Source: Lachnoclostridium sp. UBA1175
Lineage (GTDB): Bacteria; Bacillota; Clostridia; Lachnospirales; Lachnospiraceae
Length of the DNA: 64,000 bases
Assembly: GCA_002311665.1 (NCBI GenBank)
Contig: DBYX01000008.1
Location: 27,268-91,267, forward strand
Reading direction: 5' to 3'
The notes below the pieces were generated by a model, which saw only the letters and a list, made by a program, of their open reading frames with translations, was not told where the DNA came from and did not search any database. Shown here one piece after another: positions 22,512 through 44,436 of the stretch. The translations under genes were made by a program, and so were the position numbers. Position 1 is the first letter of the stretch, and every line of letters starts with the position of its first letter.

Positions 22512-22524
22512 AGTAAAATCCCCC

Positions 22525-25066: not shown

Positions 25067-25110
25067 CCTGTTTCAAAAACTCAGAAAAACCCCAAAACAA
25101 TTGACGACGA

Positions 25111-26403: not shown

Positions 26404-26499
26404 AAAATCTCCCCCTTGAAAGATATATTATTCCACGCATATTGCGTGGTTACGGCTCACCGGTTCATTGCTCCTTAACTCAAGCAGCACACCGATCCG

Positions 26500-27231: not shown

Positions 27232-27267
27232 AGTCCGATTTCCTCCCATCACGCAATTATATCACAA

Positions 27268-27462
27268 TCAATCGTCGAAGAAAGCATCGATCGCTTCCAT
27301 CTCATCCACCCAGCCCTGATCGCCCTTCGCGCCCTTCATCACGGCGCCGCAACCCGGGCAGGTCTTCTTCGCCTTCCCGCACACCTCACCGCACGCGGAG
27401 CACTCGTACTCGTCGCTTCGGAAAATGTGCGTGTGCCGGATCCAGTGAGCGGTGTGCTTCAT
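27268..27462 (-). CDS. Small zinc-ribbon protein (64 aa)
   Basis: MKHTAHWIRHTHIFRSDEYECSACGEVCGKAKKTCPGCGAVMKG... with CxxC-x9-CxxC. RBS GGAGGGGG; ATGA overlap with the bcp stop. The longer track ORF (to 27795) is a shadow of bcp. Confidence 0.5.
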   Translation of the reverse strand: MKHTAHWIRHTHIFRSDEYECSACGEVCGKAKKTCPGCGAVMKGAKGDQGWVDEMEAIDAFFDD

Positions 27463-27923
27463 ACCCCCTCCTTGACCGTCGTCAGCATCTCCTCCGGGTT
27501 CTCCGCGGCCTTCACCTTGTCCGCCGCGCGGATGATCACGCCGTTCTCGTCGATCAGGTACGTCGTGCGCACCACGCCCATCGAGACTTTGCCGTAATTC
27601 ACTTTCTCCTTCCAGACATCGTACGCCTCGAGCACCTTGCGCTCCGGGTCCGCCAGCAGCGTAAACGCGAGCCCGTACTTGTCGGCAAATCGCCTGTGCG
27701 ACTCGACGCTGTCCTTGCTGACCCCGAGGATCTCGACGCCCTGCTCCCGGAAGAGCGGCATGCGCTCCGAGAACCCGCACGCCTGCTTCGTGCACCCCGA
27801 CGTGTTGTCCTTCGGGTAGAAATACAGGATCACTTTCCTCCCGCGGTAATCCGCGAGCGAATGAAGCTTGCCGTCCTGATCCGGCAGCGTGAAATCAGGT
27901 GCTTTAGTTCCAACCGTTAACAT
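27459..27923 (-). CDS. bcp: Thiol peroxidase / peroxiredoxin Bcp
   Basis: 154 aa. FTLPDQDGK, YFYPKDNTSGCTKQAC (peroxidatic Cys), GVSKDS. Confidence 0.92.
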   Translation of the reverse strand: MLTVGTKAPDFTLPDQDGKLHSLADYRGRKVILYFYPKDNTSGCTKQACGFSERMPLFREQGVEILGVSKDSVESHRRFADKYGLAFTLLADPERKVLEAYDVWKEKVNYGKVSMGVVRTTYLIDENGVIIRAADKVKAAENPEEMLTTVKEGV

Positions 27924-27965
27924 ATTGTTGCTCCTTTATTATACGCTTAGTGCGGCATAAAATGC

Positions 27966-29108
27966 TCAAAGATCGATCAAAACCGCCCTGCACGGCGCGC
28001 CGTCCGCGCCCCCGAGGTTGATCGGCGCCGCGTTCAGCAGATACTTCCCGACCGGCACCTCCGCGAGCCTGATGCCCTCCAGCAACACGATCTCCGCCCC
28101 GAGCATCACAAGATGCACCGCCATCGGCGCATCCTCCGGCCCAACCGTCTGCGACTCGTTGCCGAACAGCTTGATCCCGGCCTCCGCGAACACCTTTGCC
28201 GCCTCCGGCGTCACCGTCGCCTTGCCCTTCACAAGGATCCGCTCCGCCGCCTCGGCATCGCACTCCCGCGCCTCCCGCAGGATCCGCGCCGCATCCGCCG
28301 CCGAAATCTCGCCCGCCGCCTCCGCGACATAGGCGAACCCGACAAACCGCTCCATATCCACCTGATCGATCTTCTTCCCGTCCTTTAGAAAATGAAACGG
28401 AGCATCCACGTGCGTCCCATTGTGCGCGCACATCCGAAACGCCGTCAGATTGCACACAGCCCCGTCTGCAATGCTCAACATAACCTCCCGCACCGGGCTC
28501 GGATCGCCCGGGTACACGGCGCAGGAGAAAACTTCCTGGGAGATGTCGTAGAGTTTCATACCGGTTTTCTTTCTCGCAGGCTCAGCCCCCTTACTCAGAT
28601 CCGCAAGCGTCTGCTCGCCCACCGCCTTAATCTTATCATCCAGCACGGCAAATACAATCTCCATCTCATAGTCCGGATACTCCGCCAGAAAATCCCGACA
28701 AGCCTGGATTGCCTTCCTCCACGCCCCATCCAACGGATACCCGTAGATCCCCGCCGAGATCAGCGGAAAACCGATCGAATGCAGCCCGTTCTCCATCGCA
28801 AGCAACAGCGACTTCTTATACGCGCTGTACAGAAGCTTCGGCTCACCCTGCTTCCCATCCGTATACTGCGGCCCGACCGCGTGGATCACAAACTTCGCCG
28901 GTAAATTGAACCCCGGCGTAATCACCGCATCCCCAACATCGCAGTGCCCGATCTTGTTGCACGCAGCCGACATCTCATTAACGCCCGCGTCTCGGAAAAT
29001 GTAACCGCACACGCCGCTGCCGTGCCACAGCCCGGTGTTTGCCGCATTAACCACGGCGTCAGTAGCGAGTTTGGTGATATTGTTTTTTTGGATGGTGATA
29101 GAGGACAT
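27966..29108 (-). CDS. Fusion protein: N-terminal macro domain + C-terminal cyclase/arylformamidase-family domain
   Basis: Macro domain: DAVVNAANTGLWHGSGVCGYIF...IGFPLISAGIYGYP. Cyclase family: HNGTHVDAPFHF, EGIRL. Confidence 0.8.
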   Translation of the reverse strand: MSSITIQKNNITKLATDAVVNAANTGLWHGSGVCGYIFRDAGVNEMSAACNKIGHCDVGDAVITPGFNLPAKFVIHAVGPQYTDGKQGEPKLLYSAYKKSLLLAMENGLHSIGFPLISAGIYGYPLDGAWRKAIQACRDFLAEYPDYEMEIVFAVLDDKIKAVGEQTLADLSKGAEPARKKTGMKLYDISQEVFSCAVYPGDPSPVREVMLSIADGAVCNLTAFRMCAHNGTHVDAPFHFLKDGKKIDQVDMERFVGFAYVAEAAGEISAADAARILREARECDAEAAERILVKGKATVTPEAAKVFAEAGIKLFGNESQTVGPEDAPMAVHLVMLGAEIVLLEGIRLAEVPVGKYLLNAAPINLGGADGAPCRAVLIDL

Positions 29109-29211
29109 ATTTCGAACCTCCTTTTTCCATTTTTTGGATTATCATATTCAAAACATGTCCATTCTCAGTTACAACGTTTGATATACGCTGGTCAAAATAA
29201 GAACACCTTCA

Positions 29212-30285
29212 TTATAATATTATATTATTGACCCACGTTGTAACATCTCTATCTGGCATGCCAGGTCTACAAGAATTAATCATGTGTGCCCACATAACGC
29301 TTTCTCTGAAAGGACTACTCATAGATGCGACTCGGAAATAAGCTTTTTCTTCCTTTGCTTGTTCATCCAGTGCTATATCCGCCAGATCGATTAAAGATAA
29401 TGACTTCAAGTCTATCGTCATATACGGAATTTTCGTCGGTAACTCGGGCAAAGGAACCTTTGCATAATTGTATCCTGTGTGAATATATCTGGTAACTAAG
29501 TTATGCAATTCTTCACCACTTGGCATATTCCCAGAAGAATAATATAAATCTTTTGCCGCTTTACACTCGGCAACCAGAATTTTCTTGTTAGGCTTGGCGC
29601 GAGCCATATCGCAGGAAGGCGTAAGAACCACGCAGTACTGAGTTGCCTTTGCTATAGAAGAGCAGTTATTATTATTATTCTTTCTAAGGATATCAGCCGC
29701 CATTAAAGTCTTACTAATCGGAGGATATTCATATTCCATCCAAGCGGGAGGGAAAAAATCTTCCTCATCTTTGGGGAATGCGCTTTGAATTCTTTTTCTA
29801 AGCATATACTTCACTATATCAACATCAAGATTATTGATTGAAAAGTAATATGCCATTGCCTTGGCCGAAAGCAGAAGCGAACTGTTAAGTTCTTTCTTGG
29901 ATTCTTTTACAGCTTGTATATATGGTTCCCATTGTTCGATTTTGTCGATAACTACTTGTTCATCGCCTTTTGGGAGAATCTCAATCATCGGGTTTCCTTC
30001 TGCAATACTAACCACATCGTCTGATATCGTGGATGCAATTGCAGAAAAAACAATTACAGGAACAAAATCGTTTTCGTATAACGCCTTAAAAATCGGATCC
30101 CCTTCATGTGTGTTTTCAGCGTCATACATCCAATCCATTACTACCAAGTCGGGATTGTACAGCAGTAATTCTTTTGGTGCCTCCTGGAAAGTACAGTTCT
30201 TGTAATCCCAATCACCCTTATCTTCCACATAATCCATGATTCCTTGTACAGCCTCTTGCCGATCTTCAATAAAAAGTATTTTCAT
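29212..30285 (-). CDS. Receiver (REC) domain protein with uncharacterised ~230-aa C-terminal domain (possible PD-(D/E)XK nuclease effector)
   Basis: 357 aa. KILFIEDRQ (E7-D8), DLVVMDW (D51), VIVFSA (S81), ILPKG (K106). The C-terminus has no HTH. YCVVLTPSCD(226)-x13-VAE(240)CK(242) resembles a restriction-endonuclease core. The ATG overlaps the kinase stop (ATGA). Confidence 0.7.
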   Translation of the reverse strand: MKILFIEDRQEAVQGIMDYVEDKGDWDYKNCTFQEAPKELLLYNPDLVVMDWMYDAENTHEGDPIFKALYENDFVPVIVFSAIASTISDDVVSIAEGNPMIEILPKGDEQVVIDKIEQWEPYIQAVKESKKELNSSLLLSAKAMAYYFSINNLDVDIVKYMLRKRIQSAFPKDEEDFFPPAWMEYEYPPISKTLMAADILRKNNNNNCSSIAKATQYCVVLTPSCDMARAKPNKKILVAECKAAKDLYYSSGNMPSGEELHNLVTRYIHTGYNYAKVPLPELPTKIPYMTIDLKSLSLIDLADIALDEQAKEEKAYFRVASMSSPFRESVMWAHMINSCRPGMPDRDVTTWVNNIIL

Positions 30286-32402
30286 TTTGTTTCACTAATT
30301 GGAAAATCCACCACCAGAGATGCTCCACCAATTTTCCCGGGTTGCAGAACACCAACTTTTCCTCCGTATGATTTTATGATTTCTGTGACAATTACTAACC
30401 CCATTCCAATTCCTTTAGGTTTTGAAGTCACTCCTGGTACAAATATCCTTTCCGAATCTTTTTCGGCAATGCCCTTGCCGGTATCATTAACGGAAACACA
30501 ACATCTATCACCCTTAATCTCCTCAATAACAACAGATATCTTTTTGCGAACATCATTATCCTGCATCCAATAACAAGAATTATCGAACAAATTGATAAAA
30601 ACTGTCTGCAACTCACTAATAGGCACTACCACAAGAATATCATCACTTATACCGTTTTCCAATTCGACTCCCTCGCACATTTTTTTTGCGGAAATCAATT
30701 CAAAACTCTGCCTTACCGCCTCTTTTAGACTTACAGGCGGAACACGTTTTCTTAAGTCTCGTTTATAAAGCGGTGCAAAACTGTTTGTCACCTCAAGAAT
30801 TCGTTTATGACTTTTCAATGAGCTTTCATAATATCTTTCTGTCTTTACATCCATCGGCAACGTTTTCTTTACTCGATCCAAAAAACGTTTTATCGTAGTC
30901 ATACCCGTTAGTATTTCGTGCATAATAACTATTGCTACAGATCCCAAAGAAGCCGTTTGAGCATAGTAAATAAGCCGCTCATTCAATTCCTGTAACTGTA
31001 GTTCATTCTTTTCATGAAAGTCCCTGATATACTTTACAAGTTCTTCTGCATTTGCACCGTTTTTTGCAGCATTTTCTACTGATTCTACCAATTCGCCTGA
31101 AGATAAGGGTGTGAGCATTTCTGATAAAGATTCACCCTTTTTCCCTTCTTCTTTATCATTATTCCGCTCCCGCTGCAATGCATCAACGACCTCTAACATA
31201 GTCTCTACAAACTGCTTATATTGAGCTGTATCGGCAAGTTTCTCTCTGTCGGTTGTATCTTTAATGTCTGGGTTTCTTTCATTACTTATTTGAACTATCC
31301 CAATAATCTGATTAGTGCTCAGTCTACGTCCTATTTGACTTATTCGCTTGGCATCCAATCCCAGCCAGTCTCTACCTGCTTCAGACTTTGGCAAAACCAG
31401 CACCTTATCGCGATAAACAGAAATACCTTTATATAGTTTAATACTTGCTCTAATATCCCTTTTCCCAATTTCGAAGCGGTCAGACACCCCCTGAAGGCTC
31501 TCAGCGTCCATATCCCAAGCCCTCAATTCAAAGGAATAGGGCCCCGCAGAATATTTTTTTAGCTCTTTTTGATCGTGCAATAAATCTGCATTATTGTAGT
31601 TTTCAGCAGTCCACTCTATAGTTCCGCTGTTTTCTCTTTTTCTGTTTCCCTCTTCAAAATAATACTTGTATTCTATAGTGCCTTTTTCATTTACCTCTCC
31701 GATTATTTTATACGTTGGATTACCAATAAAGTTCTTGGATTCAACACGTATTCCTTCTGTATCACCTAGTGCTGTAACAAAAACATTGAAATCATTTATT
31801 TCCTCAAAAGGCGAAATCAACCGGGATAACTCATTCATAAGATCAGCTAACTTTTCACGATTGTCCCAATTGTCATTTAGATCTTGAATAATAATAGTGG
31901 TTCCTACACTCTCTACACTGTCTAGTACTCTCAACTTCATTTTACAATCGTCTAGTTTTTCTATTTCATTAAAGAGTTCCCAGTCAAAATAAGCCTCCAT
32001 TGCTGGGCCATCCTCTGTCTTAGTAATCATAGTCATAGTACGACCAAGTCGAGCAGCCGAAAACCGACCCAAGCCTTTGTTCCCGGAAACAATTCGTGTA
32101 TGTTCCACCCCGTCTATTACTCTTTTTACGTATGGATTATTCTTTTTGTACGGTGTTGCTATTGTCGCCCAGGCATTAACAATCACGTCCTTTGTCATCC
32201 CGTGACCATCATCCTTAATTACAATTCTCGGATTTCCATCCTTATCCTTTTCAAATATCAAGTTTACTGTTAGTGCATACGCATCATAAGCGTTCTTCAC
32301 CAGTTCTAATATCGCAACACTGTCACTGGTTACTAATTCTTCGCCAAATGCCGCGAATGCTCGCGGATGAATCTTTATATTAATGCTTTCTTCTTTATTC
32401 AC
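30282..32402 (-). CDS. Soluble hybrid protein: N-terminal GHKL (HATPase_c_3/MORC-like) ATPase module + C-terminal histidine kinase core (HisKA + HATPase_c)
   Basis: 706 aa, GTG start with RBS GGAGGTGA, no TM spans. N-terminal ILELVKNAYDA / KDDGHGM / GNKGLGRFS. C-terminal H-box TASLGSVAIVIMHEILTGMTTIKRFL, N-box INLFDNSCYW, G1 VNDTGKGI, G2 KPKGIGMGLVIV. Confidence 0.8.
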   Translation of the reverse strand: MNKEESINIKIHPRAFAAFGEELVTSDSVAILELVKNAYDAYALTVNLIFEKDKDGNPRIVIKDDGHGMTKDVIVNAWATIATPYKKNNPYVKRVIDGVEHTRIVSGNKGLGRFSAARLGRTMTMITKTEDGPAMEAYFDWELFNEIEKLDDCKMKLRVLDSVESVGTTIIIQDLNDNWDNREKLADLMNELSRLISPFEEINDFNVFVTALGDTEGIRVESKNFIGNPTYKIIGEVNEKGTIEYKYYFEEGNRKRENSGTIEWTAENYNNADLLHDQKELKKYSAGPYSFELRAWDMDAESLQGVSDRFEIGKRDIRASIKLYKGISVYRDKVLVLPKSEAGRDWLGLDAKRISQIGRRLSTNQIIGIVQISNERNPDIKDTTDREKLADTAQYKQFVETMLEVVDALQRERNNDKEEGKKGESLSEMLTPLSSGELVESVENAAKNGANAEELVKYIRDFHEKNELQLQELNERLIYYAQTASLGSVAIVIMHEILTGMTTIKRFLDRVKKTLPMDVKTERYYESSLKSHKRILEVTNSFAPLYKRDLRKRVPPVSLKEAVRQSFELISAKKMCEGVELENGISDDILVVVPISELQTVFINLFDNSCYWMQDNDVRKKISVVIEEIKGDRCCVSVNDTGKGIAEKDSERIFVPGVTSKPKGIGMGLVIVTEIIKSYGGKVGVLQPGKIGGASLVVDFPISETK

Positions 32403-32522
32403 CTATCTCACCTCCAATAAATCTGATTCATTCTATTAATCTACTCTTATTCGCTCACTGCCCGTTACTCTTTGCCTCTTTCTGGTTTACAACAACTATG
32501 CATTGCAGTTCTTTTTTTCTTT

Positions 32523-33704
32523 TTATTTCTCAACGGGCTTTTCACTACTATCTGTCAAATAGACTAGTTGGTCATATATAAACTCTGCCATCGTTTCTAT
32601 AACTGGAATCGAAACCGAATTCCCAAACTGTTTATATTTCTGCCCTTCAGGTATATTTTCAGGAAAAGAGAATCCCTCAGCTCCCGTTATAGGATCGACA
32701 AATCCATATCCTATAAACCCTTGAAGCCTTCCCCATTCAGTAGGAGTCATCATTCGAATATTTTTTTTATTTATCCCCCCTTTTTTCTTTAATGTTTTTT
32801 CTTCCTCATACGTATGAACCGGCATCTTTTGTATAACAAGATTTCGTTCCTTCCCGGAACCCCCAGTCGCCATTATAGTATTGGCATACTCCCGATTATG
32901 TTCTCGATTGTTTAGAACATAGTAACCGAACCCATTTCCATGTTCTTTTTGTCGTCTCGCGTGCTTTTCCAACGTATCCAGATAAGTTGCTGACAGATAG
33001 TATTTCAAATCAACTGACGCCTCTAAGATTTCGTTCAAATTCTTATTTAGGTACGGATGATCCAAAAGCCGCTGGCTTAGCTGTGATGGCAATTCATTTA
33101 CAAATCCCTCTGAATCCAATCGTGCTCCATACAAGTCTCTATTAAAAGCAATAAAATACGCACGGGGGCGATTCTGGGGCAACCCAAAATTTTTCGTGTT
33201 TCTTACAAACGATTTTTTATCATAAACCAACTCTCCATCATCTTCCTGAACAACCCCAATGACTTTATAGTTCAATTTCTTCTCTATCGTATCTATAATA
33301 ACCTTTATCGTTCTTTTCTTATCGTGAGATACGATATTCTGAACATTCTCCAAAAAAATAGCCTTGGGTCTACTTAATTCGACAATCTGTGCGATATGAA
33401 AAAAAATAGTGCCTTTTGTTAAATCACTAAATCCATCTAGGTTTCCCTGACTACTGAATGGTTGACAAGGGAAACCTGCCATTAGCACATCATACTTACA
33501 ATGAGACACCTTCTCTTTGAATTCGTCCGATGTCAGGTCATTTCTGGGGTCATCCCCAAACAAATGCTCATATGTCCTCGCCGCATATTCATCGACCTCT
33601 GCGGAGAGGACATTAACAAAATGTCCGGTTAATTCAAATCCTCTCCTAATTCCGCCGATTCCCGCACATAAATCTATTGTTCTATACATTTCCTTGTTTC
33701 TCAC
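32523..33704 (-). CDS. dcm: DNA (cytosine-5)-methyltransferase
   Basis: Motif I DLCAGIGG, IV GFPCQPFS, VI FLENVQN, VIII QNRPRAYFIAF, X QFGNSVSIPV. The start is GTG 33704 or ATG 33689. Confidence 0.95.
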   Translation of the reverse strand: MRNKEMYRTIDLCAGIGGIRRGFELTGHFVNVLSAEVDEYAARTYEHLFGDDPRNDLTSDEFKEKVSHCKYDVLMAGFPCQPFSSQGNLDGFSDLTKGTIFFHIAQIVELSRPKAIFLENVQNIVSHDKKRTIKVIIDTIEKKLNYKVIGVVQEDDGELVYDKKSFVRNTKNFGLPQNRPRAYFIAFNRDLYGARLDSEGFVNELPSQLSQRLLDHPYLNKNLNEILEASVDLKYYLSATYLDTLEKHARRQKEHGNGFGYYVLNNREHNREYANTIMATGGSGKERNLVIQKMPVHTYEEEKTLKKKGGINKKNIRMMTPTEWGRLQGFIGYGFVDPITGAEGFSFPENIPEGQKYKQFGNSVSIPVIETMAEFIYDQLVYLTDSSEKPVEK

Positions 33705-33707
33705 ATT

Positions 33708-34625
33708 CTAGTTTATTATTTCACCTATTATTCCATCTAGAGTAACTGTATATGTGATGTTCATAACACCTTCCGGCAAATCTCCTCCGATAAACGAAGA
33801 CCGTCTGATTGCCGGAAAGTTCTCATCGATAAGATACTTTGTAACAGCTATAATGGCATAGTTTCTTTTTCGTGCTGTCTTCCCCTTTTCCAACCCGAGT
33901 TTACTCAGTTTTTCATTCAATCCGGAAGAACTATATCCAAGTTCTTCCAAATCTTGAACCAAACTGTTAATACTGATTCCCTCTTGTGCTGATTCGAACT
34001 GACAAAGCATTAGATAGAGTTTTGCTCCGTCCGGAGGATCCAGTTGGAACAAATTACTGAGGGTTATTTGCTTTTTGTTTCTTGCTGTAGTTGATTTAAC
34101 TTCCGCATAATAACCACCGCAATCTATATCATATGTCGCTCCGTTAGGACCGTTCCATTCTGCCTGCTCTCCGTGTTCGGCAAGATACTTTAAAACCCAC
34201 AGTTCTCCAAGAACATCGTATGCGCGAAAATCAACATTCTTGTTGCCGAGTAATTCCCTCCATCGAGCCCACCAAGCCAGCGGATTGCTCTCCAGTTCTC
34301 TTCGCAATTCTCCGTTCTGTCCCGGAGTTATCATCTCGGCACACAATGCCGAAAACGGCTCGATTATGTCTTCTTTATCACTGGTTAAAAACAGAAAATT
34401 CTTTTCGGTTTCTCCATTTAATACTCTTTTATCTGTGTATAGGTGGGCTCCCGAAAAATACTCCGAAATATCCTCGTCCGTTTCTATCGGTACTGCCACT
34501 CCGTACTCAGAGCGATTTTTCAACGTCCAGGTCTCGTACCCCTCTTTTGAAAGACTCACCACGCTCATAAACATGCCGGAAGGTGTTCCCGCCCAATTAT
34601 TCATTAGTTCTTCTGTCAACATCAT
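33708..34625 (-). CDS. PD-(D/E)XK motif protein (putative restriction endonuclease component)
   Basis: 305 aa. ATYDID-x8-AEVKST core, typical of the 'PD-(D/E)XK motif protein' that accompanies Z1/GHKL/dcm clusters. 3 nt from dcm. Confidence 0.7.
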   Translation of the reverse strand: MMLTEELMNNWAGTPSGMFMSVVSLSKEGYETWTLKNRSEYGVAVPIETDEDISEYFSGAHLYTDKRVLNGETEKNFLFLTSDKEDIIEPFSALCAEMITPGQNGELRRELESNPLAWWARWRELLGNKNVDFRAYDVLGELWVLKYLAEHGEQAEWNGPNGATYDIDCGGYYAEVKSTTARNKKQITLSNLFQLDPPDGAKLYLMLCQFESAQEGISINSLVQDLEELGYSSSGLNEKLSKLGLEKGKTARKRNYAIIAVTKYLIDENFPAIRRSSFIGGDLPEGVMNITYTVTLDGIIGEIIN

Positions 34626-35358
34626 CGATTTCTATGGAAAGTTGCCTGAAAAGCATTCCCAAATATCCTTTCTCCGCATCTTTTACAAGCGCGGGTTCTG
34701 TAGTTCTGCAGTTAACCAGGTTCTGCTTTTGAATAGTATTGAAGAGGTCTGTGTTTTTGTTCTTCACACGAGAATAATCATACATTAGCTGCCGGTATAA
34801 CGCCAACCTGTAACCTTGTCCTGTTCGTTCAATAAGATCACTTATTGTATCAACCCCGAATCTGCGAAGCACATCATATGTCTCGGCTTCTGAACCTTGC
34901 CAGGAAAGAAAAATATACCACCACAGCGTTTTGAGCCAAATTCTTCGTGTGTGCGAGTAAAATCTCTTATGATTAATATGTCCGCCCTGTTCCAGTATCT
35001 CTTTTTCCGGAGTCGGGTATCTTTCATAAGTAATATCTGGGAACACTTTGCAAGACAGGTAACGCCATATATCATCATCACTCGCTAATACAAAGGAAAA
35101 ACCGTTCGCTGGATTGAACTCCCTATATAACGCGAATCCGACTTTTAAATCCGTTTCATACCATCCAAATGGTTTTGATTCTTTATAAACGGCAATAACC
35201 TTGTTTCTTAACTCATTATATTCAAAACTGAAATCGTCGACAATATTGTTCTTCCATTTGGCAATCAACTCGTCAAATAACGGTGCAGACAATTTGTCAA
35301 TATCATCGATCAAATGCTTTGCTTGGTCCTTTGTAAGTTTTTTGGTCGGAATCATCAA
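34597..35358 (-). CDS. Hypothetical protein (253 aa), no recognisable domain
   Basis: Long ORF with island-like codon usage. ATGA overlap with the upstream gene, and 8-29 nt overlap with the downstream gene. Confidence 0.6.
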   Translation of the reverse strand: MMIPTKKLTKDQAKHLIDDIDKLSAPLFDELIAKWKNNIVDDFSFEYNELRNKVIAVYKESKPFGWYETDLKVGFALYREFNPANGFSFVLASDDDIWRYLSCKVFPDITYERYPTPEKEILEQGGHINHKRFYSHTRRIWLKTLWWYIFLSWQGSEAETYDVLRRFGVDTISDLIERTGQGYRLALYRQLMYDYSRVKNKNTDLFNTIQKQNLVNCRTTEPALVKDAEKGYLGMLFRQLSIEIDDVDRRTNE

Positions 35359-36284
35359 TCATCGCCTCCGTTAATCATATCAGCAACATTCATCCAAATA
35401 GTTTTATGCATCCTTTCTTCCGTAGAAAAATCAATGTCCGTTTTGCAACTGTCTTTAAAATAATAAAGTATTTTGCTGATGCTTCCTTCCTCCAAATCAA
35501 CATCATTAATGGTGTTTGCAAGGCAACCGCAGTCCGATACCTTCCTATACAGCATCACATAAACCGTCGTTATGATATCTATCAAGACATCAGCATACTT
35601 TACCGTCTCACCCATTTTGGGACACAGTTCATATGCTGTATTCAGATAAATACAAAGACTATCTTCATCAAACAAATCTTTTTGGGGTTCACTCCAATCA
35701 GACAATTCCAGCCACCACATAGGAAGTTTCTTATCATTTATCTCCGCAATAGGGAACTCCATGTACATGCTTCCGAGATCAAGATGAACCTCATCCAGAA
35801 CACCTACCTTAACACCTTCATCGTTCATTAAAGATTCCTCGCCCAAAAGAATCTTTTCGGCGGCTTTTTTGATATACAGTTGAGTCTCGAGGCATAAATC
35901 CCCTTTGATTGTGCCGGGTTCAAACAAATAATCAAACTCGTACACACTAGATGCTTCATTCCTGTAAGTGTTCCCTGGAAGAATAGTACCCATTTGCTTC
36001 AGTGTTTTATTAGTCCAAATAATGCAAATTCCAAGCTCCGCATCTTCACACGCGATGCCCGATTTTCCATACAAGTATTCCGGATACTCAATGACAATAC
36101 TTCGTCTTATTCTCAAACCATCTCGTTCGATTCTCCAGGTATCATCATCGAATTTGACTACATTCTTGCCTTTTCCGATAAGCCTGCAGTCAAGATCATT
36201 AACGTTGTAACTGTATATATACGATGTCAATGAGAACCCTGCAGTTTCCAATAATTCATCTGTTAATGTCGGGTAAAAAAACAT
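35355..36284 (-). CDS. Hypothetical protein (309 aa), no recognisable domain
   Basis: Long ORF with island-like codon usage. It lies 17 nt downstream of the GHKL gene and overlaps the next gene by 4 nt. Confidence 0.6.
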   Translation of the reverse strand: MFFYPTLTDELLETAGFSLTSYIYSYNVNDLDCRLIGKGKNVVKFDDDTWRIERDGLRIRRSIVIEYPEYLYGKSGIACEDAELGICIIWTNKTLKQMGTILPGNTYRNEASSVYEFDYLFEPGTIKGDLCLETQLYIKKAAEKILLGEESLMNDEGVKVGVLDEVHLDLGSMYMEFPIAEINDKKLPMWWLELSDWSEPQKDLFDEDSLCIYLNTAYELCPKMGETVKYADVLIDIITTVYVMLYRKVSDCGCLANTINDVDLEEGSISKILYYFKDSCKTDIDFSTEERMHKTIWMNVADMINGGDD

Positions 36285-36301
36285 GATCGTCGCTCTCCCG
36301 G

Positions 36302-38419
36302 TTATTTATTGAATTCCTCAAGTATCTTATCAGACTTCATTTCCTTTAGTGTGAAACAATACTTTTTATCAGATGAAGTCAAAACAAGTCTTCCTGTAAC
36401 AATCGCATTTGTAATCTCGTTTTTCACTCTGATACCAAACGCGCTTCCTTCCTTTGTGTAAAGCAGTTCCAATTGCGTATAAGAGTTCTGAATCTGTCTG
36501 TTGTCAGGGCCGCAACTCGCCTCAATCTTTTCGGTTTTTCCCAGATCAACCGAATACGTTTTGCAATTACAGATAAGCGGAACCGCAATCGGAAATGCCG
36601 TACCGATATCAGATGCCCAAGTTTTAGCATCAACAAATCCTACCTCTGATTCAACAAACAGCCCTATAAGCGTTGACTTCAATTCGTTTTTGAATGTCAT
36701 TTTAAAGTCCATAGAAACACTGTTTCCATCAAACGTACTCGGTGAGAACTCCAGTATAAAATTACTGCTTTTTCCTCCTCCGCCTCCTGCGCCACCCGAT
36801 CCGGCTCCTCTTCTCTTGCCATAACCGAGTTTCGGCAACAATCTGTGCCCCAGCTTGCTGGAAAGTCTGCTGGCCGCTCCGGAAAGACTCGATACATCCT
36901 GCTTTTTGTAACAGTTATTTATCTTCTTGACGAGCTGATTCTTTATATTTGTGATTATCGTCTGCTTTGATTCATCATTCCAATCCATGTGGTCGGATTT
37001 TTCGCATCTTCTTAAGTACTCACCGAAATCGTTCTTTGCTAATCCGCTATCCCAATAAACACGCTTCACCTGAAGGGCACAATTCGGAACAAAGAAAACA
37101 AACAAAAAACTATCATCTCCCTCTGGCTTAACCAATCCCTTTGTCCAGTCCCCATCGACTTTATAATCAAGAACCACTCCTGCGGCTCTCGCAAACATAA
37201 CTATCGGATCATTATTAGTGAGCGTATTAAACATCCGAAGGTATGCTTTGGGCGGTATTATAGTACCGGTATTGCTTAGCTTCGAACTACTGACAACTAC
37301 AGATGCCGCATAGCCTGCCTGTCCGCCTTCGATTTTATTTGACGGTATTTGCACGCACTTAATATCACCGAATTTTGCCGAGTAATAGTCTTGACGTCCG
37401 TATTTATTTGCACTGAGAGCAGCAGTATACAGCTCTTGAATCAAAAGAAACAGCAAACGCATATCCTGTATCCTGAGCGGATCGCCGTTAACTCTTACGA
37501 CCAGCCTTTTTTGATCGGAATACGCTTTCAAGTTTTTGTTGTCAAGTTTCGGCGCATACCACTTCTGTGCAGCAAGTTTTGTATATTCGACAATGTCATC
37601 CTTAAACGAACACATTGCGATAACATCGTCTGAAATATCACAATTCTCAGGGAAGATGCCTTCCATTAGCCTTCTTTTGTCAATGTACGGTATGATAATC
37701 GAAGTGCCTGTTTCATCCTCACCAAACGGTGCAATTCCAAAAATATCCAGTATCTCCGATATCTCCTTTTCATCGGTTAACGGACCGATCTCATCGTCTC
37801 GATTACCATACTTCATTCCCCACCATGCTCTTCCGATTGAATCTTTGCGAATTTTGGTAAGAAGAGCATCCTGACTGCCTTCTCTTTCGACCAAAGCAAC
37901 TATAAGACGTGATTCGTAGCCGGTATCTATTTTAATGTGCGAATAAAAAACTACCAGCCCTATTCCCACTCTGAAATAAACGCTCTTTCCGTAGCCCCAG
38001 CTTCCTCCTGCTTTTCCGCCGTCACTGTTCGTTTGCTCTTTACCAGTATCGAAAACTAGTTTAAAAAAGTTTCCATGATCATTCGGGTCAATCTCACCGA
38101 CTTTTGTTTTTCCGGTTAAGCCAGATGTTTTCAGATCTCGTATTTCGAGATAATCCGCAGTAGCTGAAGGATACTTCTCATCCAAAATCACACCGATATC
38201 CTTCAACACCCGATTTAGTTTTGACGGACTGAATTCACTATAATTAAAGTTTACGCAGAAGAAGTTTTCAGGTTCGTTCAACGAAGCGTCCGAACTGTTC
38301 TGTATTGCCTCCCGAACAAGCAAGTCAACATCGGGAATATGGTCATTCTGCAATGCCTTCAGGGCTCCGCTTCCATATGACGAATTAATCGTTGTTCCTA
38401 AAATGCAACTGTCAAGCAT
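36302..38419 (-). CDS. GHKL-superfamily (MORC/Hsp90/sacsin-like, HATPase_c_3) ATPase
   Basis: 705 aa. Bergerat motif I LLVREAIQNSSDA, motif II-like IRDLKTSGLTG, motif III GGSWGYGKSVYF. Gly-rich GKRRGAGSGGAGGGGGK linker. 8-nt overlap with Z1. Confidence 0.75.
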   Translation of the reverse strand: MLDSCILGTTINSSYGSGALKALQNDHIPDVDLLVREAIQNSSDASLNEPENFFCVNFNYSEFSPSKLNRVLKDIGVILDEKYPSATADYLEIRDLKTSGLTGKTKVGEIDPNDHGNFFKLVFDTGKEQTNSDGGKAGGSWGYGKSVYFRVGIGLVVFYSHIKIDTGYESRLIVALVEREGSQDALLTKIRKDSIGRAWWGMKYGNRDDEIGPLTDEKEISEILDIFGIAPFGEDETGTSIIIPYIDKRRLMEGIFPENCDISDDVIAMCSFKDDIVEYTKLAAQKWYAPKLDNKNLKAYSDQKRLVVRVNGDPLRIQDMRLLFLLIQELYTAALSANKYGRQDYYSAKFGDIKCVQIPSNKIEGGQAGYAASVVVSSSKLSNTGTIIPPKAYLRMFNTLTNNDPIVMFARAAGVVLDYKVDGDWTKGLVKPEGDDSFLFVFFVPNCALQVKRVYWDSGLAKNDFGEYLRRCEKSDHMDWNDESKQTIITNIKNQLVKKINNCYKKQDVSSLSGAASRLSSKLGHRLLPKLGYGKRRGAGSGGAGGGGGKSSNFILEFSPSTFDGNSVSMDFKMTFKNELKSTLIGLFVESEVGFVDAKTWASDIGTAFPIAVPLICNCKTYSVDLGKTEKIEASCGPDNRQIQNSYTQLELLYTKEGSAFGIRVKNEITNAIVTGRLVLTSSDKKYCFTLKEMKSDKILEEFNK

Positions 38420-41204
38420 CTACGTATTCCTCTCTGATTTTTATTCTAAGTGACTTTGCATGGCTCTCACCGATACTGTCACCTGATACAATAATGCTTA
38501 TTCCGATAATATCACATTCTGTATTCAACGGCACTCTGTGAGTAGAATTGGCGCGAGGAGTACCGCCGTCTTTTTTGATTCGATATATCAATAAAAGAGG
38601 GATATCCTCAAGATTATAGTTTGCACGTTCTGCTATAACATCTTTTTTTTTCTTTATGACCGCTTTTATCGCTTCTTTCTGTTCCGGGGTCATCAATGAA
38701 ATATTCGCATCACTTAACGCATCCACACCAGAACGTAACGAACCGATATCTACATAGTCCTTTTCCTTTTTTCTGGTACGCTCAATAACGCCCGCCGTGA
38801 TTCCTTCCGTAATAACCCATGGATTTTCATTGTTGTCTCCGTCAACAACTGCAACATTCCAATTCACAAATCTTCCTTCTTTGTTCATTGCCTCTATCCA
38901 CTGAGAAAAATAAGGCAAGTTAGTATACAGAGAAGAATGCTTGGAAACAATAAACCTGCTTAAAAATCTGTCCCTTATCTCTGCATAAGGTATTTCATCC
39001 CATATCCATGCTTTTGCGGTGTCCGAACGTCTCGGCCGTTTCTTTTTTGCCAAATCTGCTACGTATCCCACAGTTGTACACAAGTTCGATCTGATTTGTG
39101 CCCCATCTTCAAAATCGGTGGTTTCATAGCTGTCTCCGCAAAAATCAAAGTCGTCATACTCAGCCATCTGACCTTTACGTTTTGATGTTATTCTGAACTT
39201 AGCAATCTCGGGAATATTACGGATTCTCGGTCCGAATTTCGAGGGAGAAACTCCTTGTTTCATAAATCTCTCTACTTCTCGCTTGAGATCCATGTCAACC
39301 TTTGTCAAAGCTTCAAACTTTTCCGTTACGGAATCCGTCATCCATATCCTTTGTAACAACTCATAACCTTTTCGATATCCAAACCATCTGGCCATTTGCA
39401 TAAGCGTATCCGCAAGGTTCGAGTTGCGAGAGAAATAAGTACATACAAGACCGTCAATCGTCAATCCTCGCGACAACGTATTTCCACCTATAACTATAAA
39501 TACCGGCGCCTTGCTCATTGCCTTCAATTGCTCATCGGTTGGATAAACAATTCTCAAATATGTCCCTTCTTCCGCTTCTTTATTTGCGCGACAATTGTCC
39601 ACGCACAAATGAATGCCTTCACCATACTCCAGGTTTTTATCATCTCCGAGTGCAATATTCCTTACATCCCCAAGTAATTCTATGATTTCACACTTCAGTT
39701 CAATAAACGCAGGATAGTCCTCAACCACCTCTCCAATGAAACCATATTCGGGATTAGCCGTTACTAAATCTTCCTTTGTTACACTCTTAATTTCCGCATC
39801 GTATATGTTTTCACACGTTAGCAAAACCTCGCTGGTTTTCGACAACCAGTTCTGAATTCTTTCATAAACAACAAAATGATATTTCTGTATTGCTGCCGTA
39901 TGAATCAACATACTGATCGGCTTTTTCCAAGCTCGCTTTCTCAATAAAGCAACTGAACACAAGAACCAGGCTATAGATTCCTTAAAGCTCCCCGGCAGAT
40001 CGAGTATTTGCTCTTTATGCAGTTTCATCAACTGCTTTTCATCTTCAGATGATATTCTTCTGGTTATAGGAAATCCGGGACAATCTTCTTCATCATTGCC
40101 AAAAATAACCTTCGCTCCGAAATACTCATGTGCCTCCGGTAATGTACAGATAAAATCCTTAGGATACAGAGATTCTCCCGGCACCTCATTTAACACATTA
40201 GCATATGGAGTTGCCGTGTAACTGATATAGTTCATTGATTGAAACTTCGCTTTGCCGGGAGGCGTTGATCCATCTGACATCTTCCCATTAACCAGATTGA
40301 CAATCATTCTATTTATTGCACATCGTTCCTGTTCTTCATCAGGAGTAATTTCGGCGGTATTAATACTTGCCTGATCCGCCTCATCATCAATAACAACTAT
40401 ACGCAATTTACTTGTTCTCTTTGGATCACTGTATAACCAGTCGATTAACCGTTCAAGACGTGTCCTGTTCTTAAGGCATACCGTAAGATATCTGTTCGCG
40501 TAGTTTTTGCTCCCAGACAATGTATTTAATTTCATTTCATCTGCTAAAAACCCCTTATCATCAGCGGTAAAATCAAGGACTTTCCAAAGAACGCCTCCTT
40601 CGCTGTTTCGAAGGTCTTTTTTGAACCTATCACGAGTCTGTTTTCTTAAGTTATCAATTGTGCCTGAAAGAATAATAAAAAAGTTCCAGTCATAATCAGC
40701 CGCCATACTGATTAATCCTTCCATGTTCGCCGTTTTGCCCGATTGGACACTACCGGTAACAAGACCCTTAACCTCACCGTAATTTCGAGTATCTTCCAGT
40801 AAATGATTGAGTATCCAATGACAACTCTTCTGTAAATTTGCTATTGATTCGGAACTCATCTTGTTTCTCAAATATGTCTTGTAATTCTCCCAAGATGACT
40901 CACGTCCGCAAGGAATGGGATGATGGTTTGAGAGCACTCCGTTATCAACAGCAATTACTTCTTCACCTTCAACTACGCTTACAATAACCACTATACTTTT
41001 GTAGTACTCAACAAAATCGAGCCACACTGCTCTGTTCATATTCAGCGGCCAAGATTCCTCATCAATCAAAAACCGCAATGCACTATCAAAATCCGAAGGT
41101 TCTACACATAATCCTTCGATTTCATCCCAGGTCTTGTTTTTATTCAGCATTGACGCTATCCATTCTTTACACGGCTGAAATGCTTTGCTTTCATAATCTA
41201 CCAT
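38412..41204 (-). CDS. Z1-domain protein (SF2 helicase-like ATPase fused to Z1 domain)
   Basis: 930 aa. Walker A TGSVQSGKTAN, DEAD-like VVIDDEADQASI, IGGNTLSRGLTIDGL and MQMARWFGYR (Z1 signature). Confidence 0.85.
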   Translation of the reverse strand: MVDYESKAFQPCKEWIASMLNKNKTWDEIEGLCVEPSDFDSALRFLIDEESWPLNMNRAVWLDFVEYYKSIVVIVSVVEGEEVIAVDNGVLSNHHPIPCGRESSWENYKTYLRNKMSSESIANLQKSCHWILNHLLEDTRNYGEVKGLVTGSVQSGKTANMEGLISMAADYDWNFFIILSGTIDNLRKQTRDRFKKDLRNSEGGVLWKVLDFTADDKGFLADEMKLNTLSGSKNYANRYLTVCLKNRTRLERLIDWLYSDPKRTSKLRIVVIDDEADQASINTAEITPDEEQERCAINRMIVNLVNGKMSDGSTPPGKAKFQSMNYISYTATPYANVLNEVPGESLYPKDFICTLPEAHEYFGAKVIFGNDEEDCPGFPITRRISSEDEKQLMKLHKEQILDLPGSFKESIAWFLCSVALLRKRAWKKPISMLIHTAAIQKYHFVVYERIQNWLSKTSEVLLTCENIYDAEIKSVTKEDLVTANPEYGFIGEVVEDYPAFIELKCEIIELLGDVRNIALGDDKNLEYGEGIHLCVDNCRANKEAEEGTYLRIVYPTDEQLKAMSKAPVFIVIGGNTLSRGLTIDGLVCTYFSRNSNLADTLMQMARWFGYRKGYELLQRIWMTDSVTEKFEALTKVDMDLKREVERFMKQGVSPSKFGPRIRNIPEIAKFRITSKRKGQMAEYDDFDFCGDSYETTDFEDGAQIRSNLCTTVGYVADLAKKKRPRRSDTAKAWIWDEIPYAEIRDRFLSRFIVSKHSSLYTNLPYFSQWIEAMNKEGRFVNWNVAVVDGDNNENPWVITEGITAGVIERTRKKEKDYVDIGSLRSGVDALSDANISLMTPEQKEAIKAVIKKKKDVIAERANYNLEDIPLLLIYRIKKDGGTPRANSTHRVPLNTECDIIGISIIVSGDSIGESHAKSLRIKIREEYVDA

Positions 41205-41205
41205 C

Positions 41206-41619
41206 TCATCTCTCCTTCAATGCTTTTTCGATGATATCTGCACACTCCGAACAATGTTTCTTGATATCGTTACCCCAAAAACGAATAACCTTCCAGCCAT
41301 TCGCTTCCAATTGTTCGTTTACTTCCGAATCTCTCTGCATGTTTCGTTCAATTTTGGGAATCCAAAAATCACGATTTGATTTAATATCGTTTTTTTGTTC
41401 TTCCCAATTATATCCGTGCCAGAATTCACTGTCACAAAATACTGCTACCTTTTTTCCGAGAAAAGCAATATCAGGGTGTCCGAACACTTTATTGGTGTTT
41501 TTCTGATATCTTATTCCTCGATTCCACAATTCTTTTCGCAGCATAAGTTCTATCTGTGAATTCTTATTGTGAACGGCTTTCATATTTTTCTTTCTTTGTT
41601 CGGGTGTATGATTATCCAT
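41206..41619 (-). CDS. vsr: Very short patch repair endonuclease
   Basis: Start trimmed to MDNHTPEQRKKNMKAV. GHPDIAF...AVFCDSEFWHG...FWIPKIERNMQRD...GWKVIRFW. The stop is 1 nt from the Z1 start. Confidence 0.9.
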   Translation of the reverse strand: MDNHTPEQRKKNMKAVHNKNSQIELMLRKELWNRGIRYQKNTNKVFGHPDIAFLGKKVAVFCDSEFWHGYNWEEQKNDIKSNRDFWIPKIERNMQRDSEVNEQLEANGWKVIRFWGNDIKKHCSECADIIEKALKER

Positions 41620-41918
41620 ATTTTGTTTCGCTGCTCTTTCGAATCCATTCTCACATTGTGATAATAAATCATTTACAATATTCGAGCACCATCTTTTGCT
41701 CACTATTATTGCAAATAGCACGTATCAACTCAAAGTAGACTTTTCCGTTCTTGACAATCAAAAGAATAGCTTATCCGTTCGTCATTCTACACAAACACAT
41801 TGGATTGAACCATCAAAAGCAAAACCTTTTGGGTTATTGTACTATAGTCAATTATTTTACATCAATAAGCTATTGCCTTTTTCCTGTACATCAGCCGTCT
41901 TTCCTTCAACCCGCACCA

Positions 41919-43232
41919 CTACTTCTTCACTTCCACATACACGTACCCGCAATAATGGTCCGAAATGTATCCGTCATCGTAAATCAGGTAATAATTGCCG
42001 GTTTCTTTTGCGCAGTCAAATGCGAAATAAATGTTAGCTGACATTCCCGGCTCTATATGATCTACATCATAGATGTTGGTATATCCGTCGATTTTTTCAT
42101 TTGTCAGAAAGCTTGCGGTATCGATATAATAGTTGTCCTTATACGCCCGCATGTTGTATCCCATCAATCTTGTTTCAAGCGCCGATGTTCCGGTGTTCGT
42201 TAGCTTAAACTTGAACACAAGATAATTGTCTTTTGTGTAGTTATCCGCGCGATGATGCTTCGCTCCCTTAAACTGGATCGTATAGTTGCCTTGATAGATG
42301 ATCTCGTCTTCCTTGGTATAGGACAGATCCTTGTTCAGCGGGAACATCGGGGATACCTTAAATTCCTTTGTGCTGACCTCTTCCGATGTGACCGTCCAAA
42401 CGCACTCGGATTTGAAGAAGAACTTCAACTCCTTCCATCCCTTGGGTACTTCGAAGTCCAAAGCGGTCAGCAGCTGAAACGAGTGGTCGAACGTGGTTAT
42501 TGTTTCGCCTGTGACTCCGTCGACGTAGCTCAGTAAAAAGTTTTCAACCTCAGTTACCTGGATTCCGTCCGCATAGCAGGAAATCGAGCTCCGATTGAAT
42601 ACCAGCTCCTTCCCGGTGTTGTTATAAATGTCAAAGAATCCGATGATCACTTCGTGATCTGCCGGGACGGTTTCTTTACCAAAAGCCGTCGGAAGATACG
42701 ACATTGACTTTACATATTGCAGTCCCACGTACTCCTTGCCGACTCGTCCGATATCGCCGATCTTCAGATCCTTGAATGATGTCTTGTGCCCTACGATCGG
42801 ATCCGGCGTCGGGGTCGGCGCAGGTGTGTTTGTGGGCGTCGGTGCCTTGGTCGGTTTCGGAGCGGAAGTACTTTTCGGAGTGTCGGTTTGCGTGCTTGTC
42901 TTGGTATCATCGGGTTTGTCGGAATCTTTTGATTCAATTCCGTTCATTATCACTGCGAACACTCCCACCAAGACAATGATAAGCACAATAACGCTTACCG
43001 ACGACCTTTTGTTCGTCGGCGTGTTATTGTTGTATCTTGTCGCTCCCGTAATAGGGTTACCGCAGTTCGGACAGAAATACTGCCGCGCCTGCGGATTGTA
43101 AGGGATCATCGCACCACAACTTTGGCACTGCTGCACCGGCTGCGACGAACTCATCCCCCTTACGTTTCCGCACCTGGGGCACTGACTGACACCGTCATTC
43201 AGCATACATCCGCATTTTGTGCATATTCTCAT
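41919..43232 (-). CDS. Zinc-ribbon / TM / Pro-Thr linker / DUF4352-like extracellular domain protein
   Basis: Start trimmed to MRICTKCGCMLNDGVSQCPRCGN (RBS GAGGAAGG). Second ribbon CQSCG...CPNCG. TM VIVLIIVLVGVFAVIM. Linker PKPTKAPTPTNTPAPTPTP. Confidence 0.65.
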   Translation of the reverse strand: MRICTKCGCMLNDGVSQCPRCGNVRGMSSSQPVQQCQSCGAMIPYNPQARQYFCPNCGNPITGATRYNNNTPTNKRSSVSVIVLIIVLVGVFAVIMNGIESKDSDKPDDTKTSTQTDTPKSTSAPKPTKAPTPTNTPAPTPTPDPIVGHKTSFKDLKIGDIGRVGKEYVGLQYVKSMSYLPTAFGKETVPADHEVIIGFFDIYNNTGKELVFNRSSISCYADGIQVTEVENFLLSYVDGVTGETITTFDHSFQLLTALDFEVPKGWKELKFFFKSECVWTVTSEEVSTKEFKVSPMFPLNKDLSYTKEDEIIYQGNYTIQFKGAKHHRADNYTKDNYLVFKFKLTNTGTSALETRLMGYNMRAYKDNYYIDTASFLTNEKIDGYTNIYDVDHIEPGMSANIYFAFDCAKETGNYYLIYDDGYISDHYCGYVYVEVKK

Positions 43233-43355
43233 AACCGGCACCGCCTTCCTCATACTCCTCAACCATCTCCGGCCGAACGACTCACTACCCTCGTATGCAA
43301 ATCGTTCGGCCGATCCGGCGTTCACTCAGAACCTTAATATGCTTTTATAGTCCGC

Positions 43356-44402: not shown

Positions 44403-44436
44403 TGGATTGATCTCCTTTCGCGTTCTCGCTTGTGTC

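Follow-up and report, generated by a model that had tools for sequence, protein, structure and literature searches.

The window analysed here is a stretch of 64,000 nucleotides of Lachnoclostridium sp. UBA1175 (contig DBYX01000008.1, positions 27,268 to 91,267), which contains an AT-rich island at positions 29130-41900. The island comprises nine open reading frames (ORFs, g1 to g9) spanning about 12.6 kb, all on the minus strand and the majority overlapping or abutting. In transcription order, these are g9 (Vsr), g8 (Z1), g7 (GHKL), g6, g5 (DUF6339), g4 (DUF4420), g3 (Dcm), g2 (kinase), and g1 (receiver). The genes constitute two modules and no single nine-gene system: the Z1 block (g8 to g4), which together with the Vsr and Dcm genes forms a seven-gene Z1 cassette, and the kinase–receiver pair (g2-g1). 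Three points of this analysis are new: the modules recur in fused form with a single Dcm and Vsr in common, g1 has a conserved C-terminal domain without detectable relative, and a close strain carries another AT-rich defence cargo at this site. The window holds just one Dcm and one Vsr gene. The features are as follows (positions in the window; strand in brackets).

29095..29211 (no strand): left junction with the core chromosome, placed by the end of homology to the related strain L108 at 29094 and by the drop in guanine plus cytosine (G+C) content
29212..30285 (-): g1, receiver-domain protein with a C-terminal domain of about 190 amino acids, 357 amino acids; fold match of the AlphaFold model and invariant residues
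30282..32402 (-): g2, soluble histidine kinase, 706 amino acids; Pfam HATPase_c_3 at residues 28-144 (6.3e-21) and HATPase_c at 597-701 (2e-19)
32403..32522 (no strand): intergenic gap between the Dcm and kinase genes, the seam of the two modules; at 120 bp the sole sizeable gap by ORF coordinates
32523..33704 (-): g3, C5-cytosine DNA methyltransferase (Dcm); Pfam DNA_methylase (PF00145) 2.4e-66, TIGR00675 2.5e-68
33708..34625 (-): g4, DUF4420 PD-(D/E)XK nuclease, 305 amino acids; Pfam DUF4420 1.2e-30, NCBIfam MzaD 2e-12 (below cutoff)
34597..35358 (-): g5, DUF6339 protein, 253 amino acids; Pfam DUF6339 6.3e-6, weak PADLOC match to PDC-M33C
35355..36284 (-): g6, conserved protein of 309 amino acids, always between the GHKL and DUF6339 genes and present in every complete cassette
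36302..38419 (-): g7, GHKL ATPase with transducer domain and C-terminal beta-sandwich, 705 amino acids; fold match of the AlphaFold model
38412..41204 (-): g8, DEAD-type superfamily 2 ATPase with Z1 domain, 930 amino acids; Pfam Z1 2e-49
41206..41721 (-): g9, Vsr very-short-patch repair endonuclease; Pfam Vsr 5.5e-25, NCBIfam vsr 8.7e-42 (above the curated cutoff)
41722..41918 (no strand): AT-rich region upstream of Vsr, where the sharp change in composition ends on the right; likely the promoter region

The G+C content of the island (29130-41900) is 0.397, compared with 0.584 in the left flank (20000-29100), 0.614 at positions 44500-48000, and 0.561 in the remaining window. The left edge is sharp, with a decrease from 0.564 to 0.404 between 28500 and 29500 (500-bp windows), and the drop falls between the start codon of the Macro-cyclase gene (29108) and the stop codon of g1 (29212). 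At the right edge, the values over 41500-44500 are 0.36, 0.44, 0.50, 0.52, and 0.57; the sharp change ends at about 41.9 kb, and the two genes beyond it (41919-44456) are of intermediate composition (44-52% G+C). These results (39.7% against 58-61% G+C in the flanks) and those below agree with the initial annotation, which had reported an abrupt change in composition between 29.1 and 41.9 kb, nine minus-strand genes, and no signs of mobility. All nine ORFs are intact and of full length compared with their homologues. No integrase or transposase domain was found in the island proteins or in the housekeeping and surface proteins encoded by a further 20 large ORFs of the window. No tRNA gene was detected in the whole 64-kb window, and the search for flanking direct repeats returned only short chance matches. 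The domains listed in the initial annotation were recovered for Vsr, Z1, PD-(D/E)XK, methyltransferase, and kinase, whereas the count of two GHKL modules has to be raised to three by the 705-amino-acid protein: g7, recognized by its fold, and the HATPase_c_3 and HATPase_c domains. A scan for consensus promoters and terminators gave 35 sites against 35.4 expected from shuffled sequence, that is, no excess.

The Vsr protein is 67-70% identical to those of three related loci (L008, L010, and L106; 136-139 amino acids). Its true start is probably Met35, near position 41619, which would result in a protein of 137 amino acids like the homologues. The Vsr catalytic motifs are visible in its translation. 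The translation of g8 contains the Walker A motif GSVQSGKT, the motif DDEADQ, and the sequence DTLMQMARWFG, and the protein matched the PADLOC models MzaC (2.3e-59) and Helicase_II (4.9e-35); no sequence match to PDB chains was obtained. It is the predicted motor of the restriction block. The g7 protein gave no Pfam or PDB match by sequence, neither as a single sequence nor as a profile, and its N-terminus was also blank at Pfam E-values up to 10. Its AlphaFold model (predicted local distance difference test, pLDDT, 79.7) resembles topoisomerase VI-B (9o0g_D; E=1.7e-7, probability 1.0), which identifies g7 as a GHKL ATPase with a transducer module. E37..N41..D44, GGSWGYGK, and E473xxxH477 are invariant among 27 sequences of this family, which has more than 600 members related to g7. 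The classification of g7 as paraMORC2-like is based on the ExxxH motif and taxonomy, not on an alignment to the published set of this family. Between the GHKL-transducer part and the beta-sandwich lies a glycine-rich disordered linker (residues ~507-550, GKRRGAGSGGAGGGGGK), which is conserved across the family.

For g6, no match was found in Pfam (E up to 10), PADLOC, NCBIfam, or by a profile search of the PDB, and 14 relatives of g6 gave scattered weak Pfam matches. The DUF6339 profile returned nothing meaningful from the PDB, and g5 nothing new at Pfam E-values up to 10. The g4 protein is the predicted DNA-cutting subunit and displays a YDID...AEVK motif (D...ExK) in its translation. The methyltransferase g3, whose start is probably at 33689, carries the motifs DLCAGIGG, GFPCQPFS, ENV, QNRPR, and GNSVSIPV. 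It is 74.7% identical to the Dcm proteins of the loci L105 and L106 and 61% and 57% identical to those of the plain Z1 cassettes L008 and L010, respectively. The Dcm type usually linked to kinase–receiver pairs (about 345 amino acids) shares only ~26% identity with g3.

The genes of the kinase–receiver pair overlap by 4 bp. Residues 462-702 of g2 align to the dimerization and histidine phosphotransfer (DHp) domain and catalytic core of ZraS, FixL, and HK853 (5e-14), and its N-terminus is similar to the N-terminus of the BbrUII/HgiDII restriction enzymes (1.8e-17). Judged from these similarities, the 'sensor' half of g2 is a predicted paraMORC-type GHKL ATPase. The g1 protein has no Pfam match at E-values up to 10. 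In its AlphaFold model (pLDDT 86.8), a receiver domain is followed by a long helix and a C-terminal domain of about 190 amino acids. The N-terminus superposes on receiver domains with a TM-score (template modelling score) of about 0.7-0.75, normalised to the receiver, and D51 and K106 are invariant. A fold search with the full model gave matches to receiver domains only, and a profile of the C-terminal domain returned nothing useful from the PDB. This domain carries the invariant residues D198, C225-D226, E328, and R340. Its family comprises 324 clusters at 50% identity, in which it nearly always follows a receiver domain. The g1 protein is predicted to be a phosphorylation-gated effector. PADLOC analysis of eight g1 relatives did not reveal a consistent model. 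One protein of 399 amino acids (P0225) has a DNA_methylase Pfam match and also aligns with g1 at 41% identity across 65% of its length; either a fusion of Dcm and receiver-effector or an artefact of gene calling could account for it.

Each of the modules also occurs on its own. In the contexts of g7 homologues (52-63% identity; L007-L011), the seven genes Vsr-Z1-GHKL-g6-DUF6339-DUF4420-Dcm were found with no kinase or receiver gene. A scan of metagenomes yielded 56 Z1-cassette loci; the core from Z1 to Dcm is strictly colinear in 41 of these, Vsr directly precedes Z1 in 37, and most of the others are on short or truncated contigs. The relatives of the cassette originate mainly from gut and rumen metagenomes and, where named, from Eubacteriales/Lachnospiraceae. 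The contexts of g1 homologues show a conserved trio of kinase, receiver protein, and a Dcm of about 345 amino acids. A scan with one genome per species resulted in 80 kinase–receiver loci, distributed over Firmicutes, Spirochaetes, Fibrobacteres, Bacteroidetes, Acidobacteria, Planctomycetes, Chloroflexi, Proteobacteria, Verrucomicrobia, and others. The g2-type kinase gene is located directly upstream of the receiver gene in 67/68 loci, a Dcm gene is directly adjacent to the pair in 55/60 (43 downstream, 14 upstream), and a Vsr gene lies within 5 kb (<=5 kb) in 37/60.

The fused layout, with the Z1 block and the pair around one Dcm, is complete in three low-G+C contigs (L111, L112, and L135). 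It is also present in L105, whose contig begins inside Z1, and partially in L116, where only a kinase match follows Dcm. Two further loci (L106 and L107) have the order Vsr-Dcm-kinase-receiver and no Z1 block. Compared with L105/L106, the Dcm (75%), kinase (78%), and receiver protein (66%) of the window are more conserved than the proteins of the Z1 block (57-64%). In our reading, the genes Vsr ... Dcm form a marking-and-repair frame, into which a five-gene restriction cartridge can be set and to which a kinase–receiver cartridge can be attached.

A distant second adjacency was observed in a Bacteroidetes metagenome-assembled genome (MAG; L097:3-5705), where GHKL-like and Z1 genes come directly after the pair in a different layout. 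In three Firmicute loci, a gene pair encoding proteins of ~600 and ~820 amino acids is located after the kinase–receiver pair (L017:10183-14499, L105:11121-15363, and L106:6715-10963), directly in L105 and L106 and with an intervening Dcm in L017. The products are McrB-like (MrcB_N and AAA_5) and DUF2357/PDDEXK_7 proteins in L105 and L106, while in L017 only DUF2357/PDDEXK_7 was annotated. This gene pair is absent from the window.

The island appears to have been acquired horizontally from a low-G+C Firmicute by a rumen Clostridia genome of about 59% G+C. Nucleotide similarity to related cassettes is restricted to window positions 30215-41618. The DNA surrounding these cassettes has a G+C content of 0.35-0.47, near the cassettes' own 0.37-0.39, which argues that the block is native to low-G+C Firmicutes and foreign here. 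In the related strain L108, the flanks are 98.5% and 93.6% identical to those of the window, and homology ends at 29094, which is 14 bp inside the Macro-cyclase gene. Both the composition of the cassettes elsewhere and this break support a foreign origin. The initial annotation of a defence island inserted in a G+C-rich core is thereby borne out: the island is methylation-linked, of defence type, horizontally acquired, and devoid of mobility genes of its own. At the corresponding site, L108 (L108:1-2085) carries a different AT-rich cargo (0.34-0.39 G+C) encoding a TIR-like protein of at least 373 amino acids and a membrane protein of 269 amino acids with a ThsA_Macro domain, which may be a Thoeris-like system. 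The insertion site is a variable defence hotspot. A comparison with closely related genomes had been suggested to define the empty site and both junctions; it placed the left junction, but L108 bears another cargo and no empty site, and the right-hand junction was not recovered. The contigs that encode an identical flank protein all bear the island or stop at the junction, so that no empty site was recovered from these either. A second small variable spot was noticed in L108, where an extra gene (L108:4002-5408, 468 amino acids, 0.43 G+C), repeat-rich and TPR-like in appearance, separates two genes that are direct neighbours in the window (between ~27212 and 27270).

An identical Z1 protein was found in the same context on six public contigs, and the source is a cow-rumen organism. 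Members of the 90% identity cluster to which the flanking Macro-cyclase protein belongs carry Lachnospiraceae MAG labels. One related Z1 cassette is located within a conjugative element with adjacent TrbL, PrgI, VirB4, sortase, and CHAP genes. The g7 and g1 proteins had no tblastn match in 72,556 plasmids, g7 had none in 50,697 phage records and in IMG/VR, and plasmid-borne Z1 proteins are at most 30% identical. A decayed Z1 cassette with frameshifts in the Z1, GHKL, and Dcm genes was detected in GCA_015473145.1 (L012 / L148); it adjoins genes encoding a recombinase, an rve transposase, and a reverse transcriptase.

On this basis, we consider it somewhat probable that the island is a composite defence locus of horizontal origin built around 5-methylcytosine as its mark, with one Dcm-Vsr pair shared by two predicted effector modules. 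Several findings weigh against such an interpretation. Only 4 of the 28 Z1 cassettes with enough downstream sequence have a kinase–receiver pair, and the fusion could therefore reflect the ordinary clustering of defence genes. Since the Dcm of typical pairs is of another type, with 26% identity to g3, the pair of the island may be independent of g3 or stranded without its partner. The g3 protein does not have the winged-helix tail of about 55 amino acids present in relatives (L105, L106), and window positions 41620-41918 do not contain the small helix-turn-helix (HTH) gene (56-69 amino acids) that precedes Vsr in other loci (L008:6620-6829, L010:6593-6799, and L106:1470-1640), so that the regulation of g3 may differ or be impaired here. 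No nuclease fold or motif was recognisable in the C-terminal domain of g1. A PD-(D/E)XK assignment of this domain (D226 ... A-E-C-K) was dropped because E240 and K242 are not conserved. No experiment on either module (anti-phage activity, methylated motif, or phosphotransfer) was found in the literature searched.

The first two of these findings are also what would be expected of two independent systems placed side by side by defence-island clustering, of which the Z1 block with Dcm and Vsr is self-contained, whereas the pair has lost its own Dcm and is g3-independent or an inactive remnant. The location of the usual pair Dcm directly downstream or upstream, the lack of a pair in 24/28 Z1 cassettes, and the 120-bp gap between the Dcm and kinase genes are in line with this explanation. 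It is nevertheless unlikely, because the fused layout was found again in four loci (L105, L111, L112, and L135) and partially in L116, with cassettes that are only 57-78% identical to that of the window, and because a g3-type Dcm with Vsr is the sole methyltransferase beside the pair in L106 and L107. Moreover, the closer similarity of the Dcm, kinase, and receiver proteins to those of L105/L106 looks as if these three had travelled together, and g2 and g1 are intact with all catalytic residues present.

The pair could also be a regulator rather than an effector, which senses DNA damage, infection, or methylation and controls the neighbouring restriction genes or the methyltransferase in the manner of C-proteins or BrxR/WYL. 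Two-component systems are mostly regulatory, and for a comparable pair a role in signalling and a probable 'regulatory outspread' have been discussed (Bellieny-Rabelo et al., 2021; PMC8011034). The missing HTH gene and winged-helix tail could create the need for another regulator, and the output domain of g1 displays no recognised enzymatic fold. On the other hand, no DNA-binding domain was detected in g1 with Pfam, the invariant polar residues of its C-terminal domain are typical of an active site, and in many genomes the pair has only Dcm and Vsr beside it, which leaves no further restriction gene as a target of regulation. A regulatory role is judged improbable.

The block g9-g3 corresponds in gene composition and size, not by comparison of sequences, to the 'Type I' putative defence system of Miller, Stern and Burstein (2022; PMC9523054), which is a computational prediction. 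That system comprises a Z1 protein of 925 amino acids (930 in the island), a MORC-like protein of 704 (705), a DUF4420 protein of 298 (305), a DUF6339 protein of 231 (253), an orphan of 310 (309 for g6), a C5 methyltransferase, and an associated repair endonuclease. Its description does not include a kinase–receiver pair. Operons linking paraMORC/MORC ATPases with a Z1 helicase, a restriction endonuclease (RE)-fold nuclease, DCM, and VSR were predicted earlier, all by computation, as the available part of the paper of Iyer, Abhiman and Aravind (2008; PMC2292703) describes. There, paraMORC2 is an ExxxH-bearing family of Gram-positives and cyanobacteria. The island resembles these operons in the Z1 signature DThhQXuRhFG, which the g8 sequence DTLMQMARWFG fits, in the GHKL ATPase with S5/transducer module, with which the fold, Bergerat motifs, and ExxxH of g7 agree, and in the set of RE-fold nuclease (E-D-ExK), DCM, and VSR, represented here by DUF4420 (D...ExK), Dcm, and Vsr. 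In contrast, g6, the DUF6339 partner, and the link to a His-Asp phosphorelay are not described in that part of the paper.

The kinase–receiver pair looks like a borderline or sister lineage, by sequence, of the two-component-like pair HEF_HK (PF19191) and Response_reg_2 (PF19192), which is associated with C5 methyltransferases, Vsr, and type II restriction-modification genes and for which a paraMORC origin was proposed (Bellieny-Rabelo et al., 2021; PMC8011034). Common features are a soluble kinase (HATPase_c_3, DHp histidine, HATPase_c) adjoining a divergent receiver protein and a neighbourhood of Dcm and Vsr. Neither g1 and g2 nor ten relatives match PF19191 or PF19192. With PF19192 (cutoff 27), scores of 25-30 bits were obtained for six relatives that share 38-40% identity with g1, and PF19191 never matches. 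For that pair, the paper mentions neither a conserved C-terminal domain in the receiver protein nor a link to Z1/DUF4420.

The Mza system (mzaABCDE) is reportedly from Gao et al. 2020. It resembles the island in that an MzaC-like Z1 protein and an MzaD-like DUF4420 protein are encoded in one operon. The NCBIfam equivalog scores are 256 bits for MzaC (cutoff 1500) and 46.9 bits for MzaD (cutoff 420); both lie far below the cutoffs and mark g8 and g4 as relatives and not equivalogs. In the nine proteins, no AIPR was found with Pfam and no MzaB or MzaE with PADLOC or NCBIfam; of the PADLOC Mza models, only MzaC and MzaD matched. In the island, g6 and DUF6339 are added, and Dcm and Vsr are integral. 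The Z1 cassette is accordingly classed as a relative and not as a member of Mza, a system that Miller et al. call validated (PMC9523054).

The biochemistry of Z1 motors comes only from CglI, NgoAVII, and BceSIV, in which a DEAD-Z1 ATPase and NTP (nucleoside triphosphate) hydrolysis are required for cleavage by a separate nuclease (PMC4267653, PMC5737866). These systems share with the island a 5-methylcytosine methyltransferase and a DEAD-Z1 ATPase. Their nuclease belongs to the PLD family, for which no match was obtained here, whereas the island encodes a PD-(D/E)XK DUF4420 protein, a GHKL ATPase, and two further proteins.

For the second module, Detocs (defensive two-component system) offers a comparison, as it too combines a receiver-effector protein with a histidine kinase. 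To our knowledge, no other two-component-based defence system has been validated. Detocs is said to consist of a TPR-type sensor kinase DtcA, a buffering receiver DtcB, and a receiver-PNP ATP-nucleosidase effector DtcC, with no methyltransferase. No PADLOC Detocs model matched g1 or g2, the island has no second receiver gene, and no PNP domain was found with Pfam.

For the composite locus, we infer every biochemical step, including the reading of the g3 mark by both modules, from the genes, folds, motifs, and gene order described above. The g3 protein would mark host DNA at a cytosine motif, and Vsr would repair the T:G mismatches that arise from deamination of 5-methylcytosine. Module 1 (g8-g4) would be an NTP-driven restriction complex, with the DEAD-Z1 protein as motor, the paraMORC2-type GHKL protein as clamp, and the DUF4420 protein as nuclease. 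This complex would bind unmethylated sites, communicate along the DNA by means of ATP, and cut, by analogy with CglI/NgoAVII/BceSIV and Mza. Site recognition or assembly may be supplied by g6 and DUF6339. Module 2 (g2-g1) would be a cytoplasmic His-Asp phosphorelay, in which the paraMORC-like GHKL half of the kinase acts as the sensor, presumably of the DNA state. This sensor would drive autophosphorylation of the DHp histidine, followed by phosphotransfer to D51 of g1 and activation of its C-terminal domain.

More tentatively, and with rather low confidence, a single 5-methylcytosine mark set and maintained by Dcm/Vsr might be read by two mechanistically unrelated and exchangeable effector arms, with the Z1/paraMORC2 complex as first-line cutter and the phosphorelay as a second, signal-amplified layer of restriction-like immunity. 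The paraMORC-type clamp would then serve as the sensor of a soluble histidine kinase, and phosphotransfer would switch on a receiver-fused effector of undescribed fold.

The initial annotation had also raised the possibility of a Firmicutes relative or variant of the methylation-associated defence system (MADS). This is highly improbable. MADS is an eight-gene operon that was removed with a deletion of about 22 kb; it includes an N6-methyltransferase (mad2), a specificity subunit, and a kinase, which are flagged by PADLOC as DNA-modification components, it modifies the bipartite motif TCAGNNNNTCC, detected by PacBio sequencing, and its hosts are Proteobacteria, Actinobacteria, and Nostocales (bioRxiv 10.1101/2023.03.30.534895). 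Similarity extends to the gene count, to the broad list of functions, and to the general character of a multi-gene, methylation-based self/non-self system in a defence hotspot (Maestri et al. 2023/2024). In contrast, the island has nine genes in 12.6 kb, MADS is not reported in Firmicutes, and a C5-cytosine methyltransferase and Vsr take the place of the N6-methyltransferase and specificity subunit. No model of the latter two matched any of the nine proteins in Pfam, PADLOC, or NCBIfam, nor did any PADLOC model named MADS. The 'kinase' of the island is a two-component histidine kinase, and every island protein is accounted for by other families. Kinship with MADS was hence rejected on methyltransferase type and operon size; that both have nuclease, ATPase, kinase, and methyltransferase functions is read as a generic resemblance rather than homology, MADS being set apart here by its description. 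As a lesson for annotation, such a shared list does not make a system MADS.

Both kinds of module had already been predicted by computation (Miller 2022/Iyer 2008; Bellieny-Rabelo 2021), and the value of the present analysis lies in the idea of a phosphorelay linked to restriction and in the g1 effector domain rather than in a new system class. The modules are widespread, as indicated by the more than 600 relatives of g7, the 324 clusters of the receiver-effector domain, and the occurrence of the pair in 80 species-level genomes of many phyla. A g3-type Dcm accompanies only the Z1 block in L008, only the pair in L106, and both modules in the window and L105, which constitutes a natural experiment. 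Two questions are opened to testing: whether a phosphorelay serves as a restriction-type immune effector, and how GHKL/MORC ATPases couple the DNA methylation state to a response, which bears on eukaryotic MORC proteins.

Just past the island, at positions 44437-46904, a WYL+WCX regulator, a HIRAN protein of 131 amino acids, and a protein of 269 amino acids with an HPD (J-domain-like) motif are encoded. A pair of a 266-amino-acid protein and a HIRAN protein (28% and 41% identity) is located ~6 kb upstream of the cassette in L008. Further downstream, at 48229-58828, three large surface proteins (1046-1156 amino acids) contain Listeria-Bacteroides (Flg_new) repeats, and DUF3472 was also present in both of those that were checked. 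A second low-G+C patch at 48.5-50 kb lies inside the first of these surface proteins and does not represent a second island.

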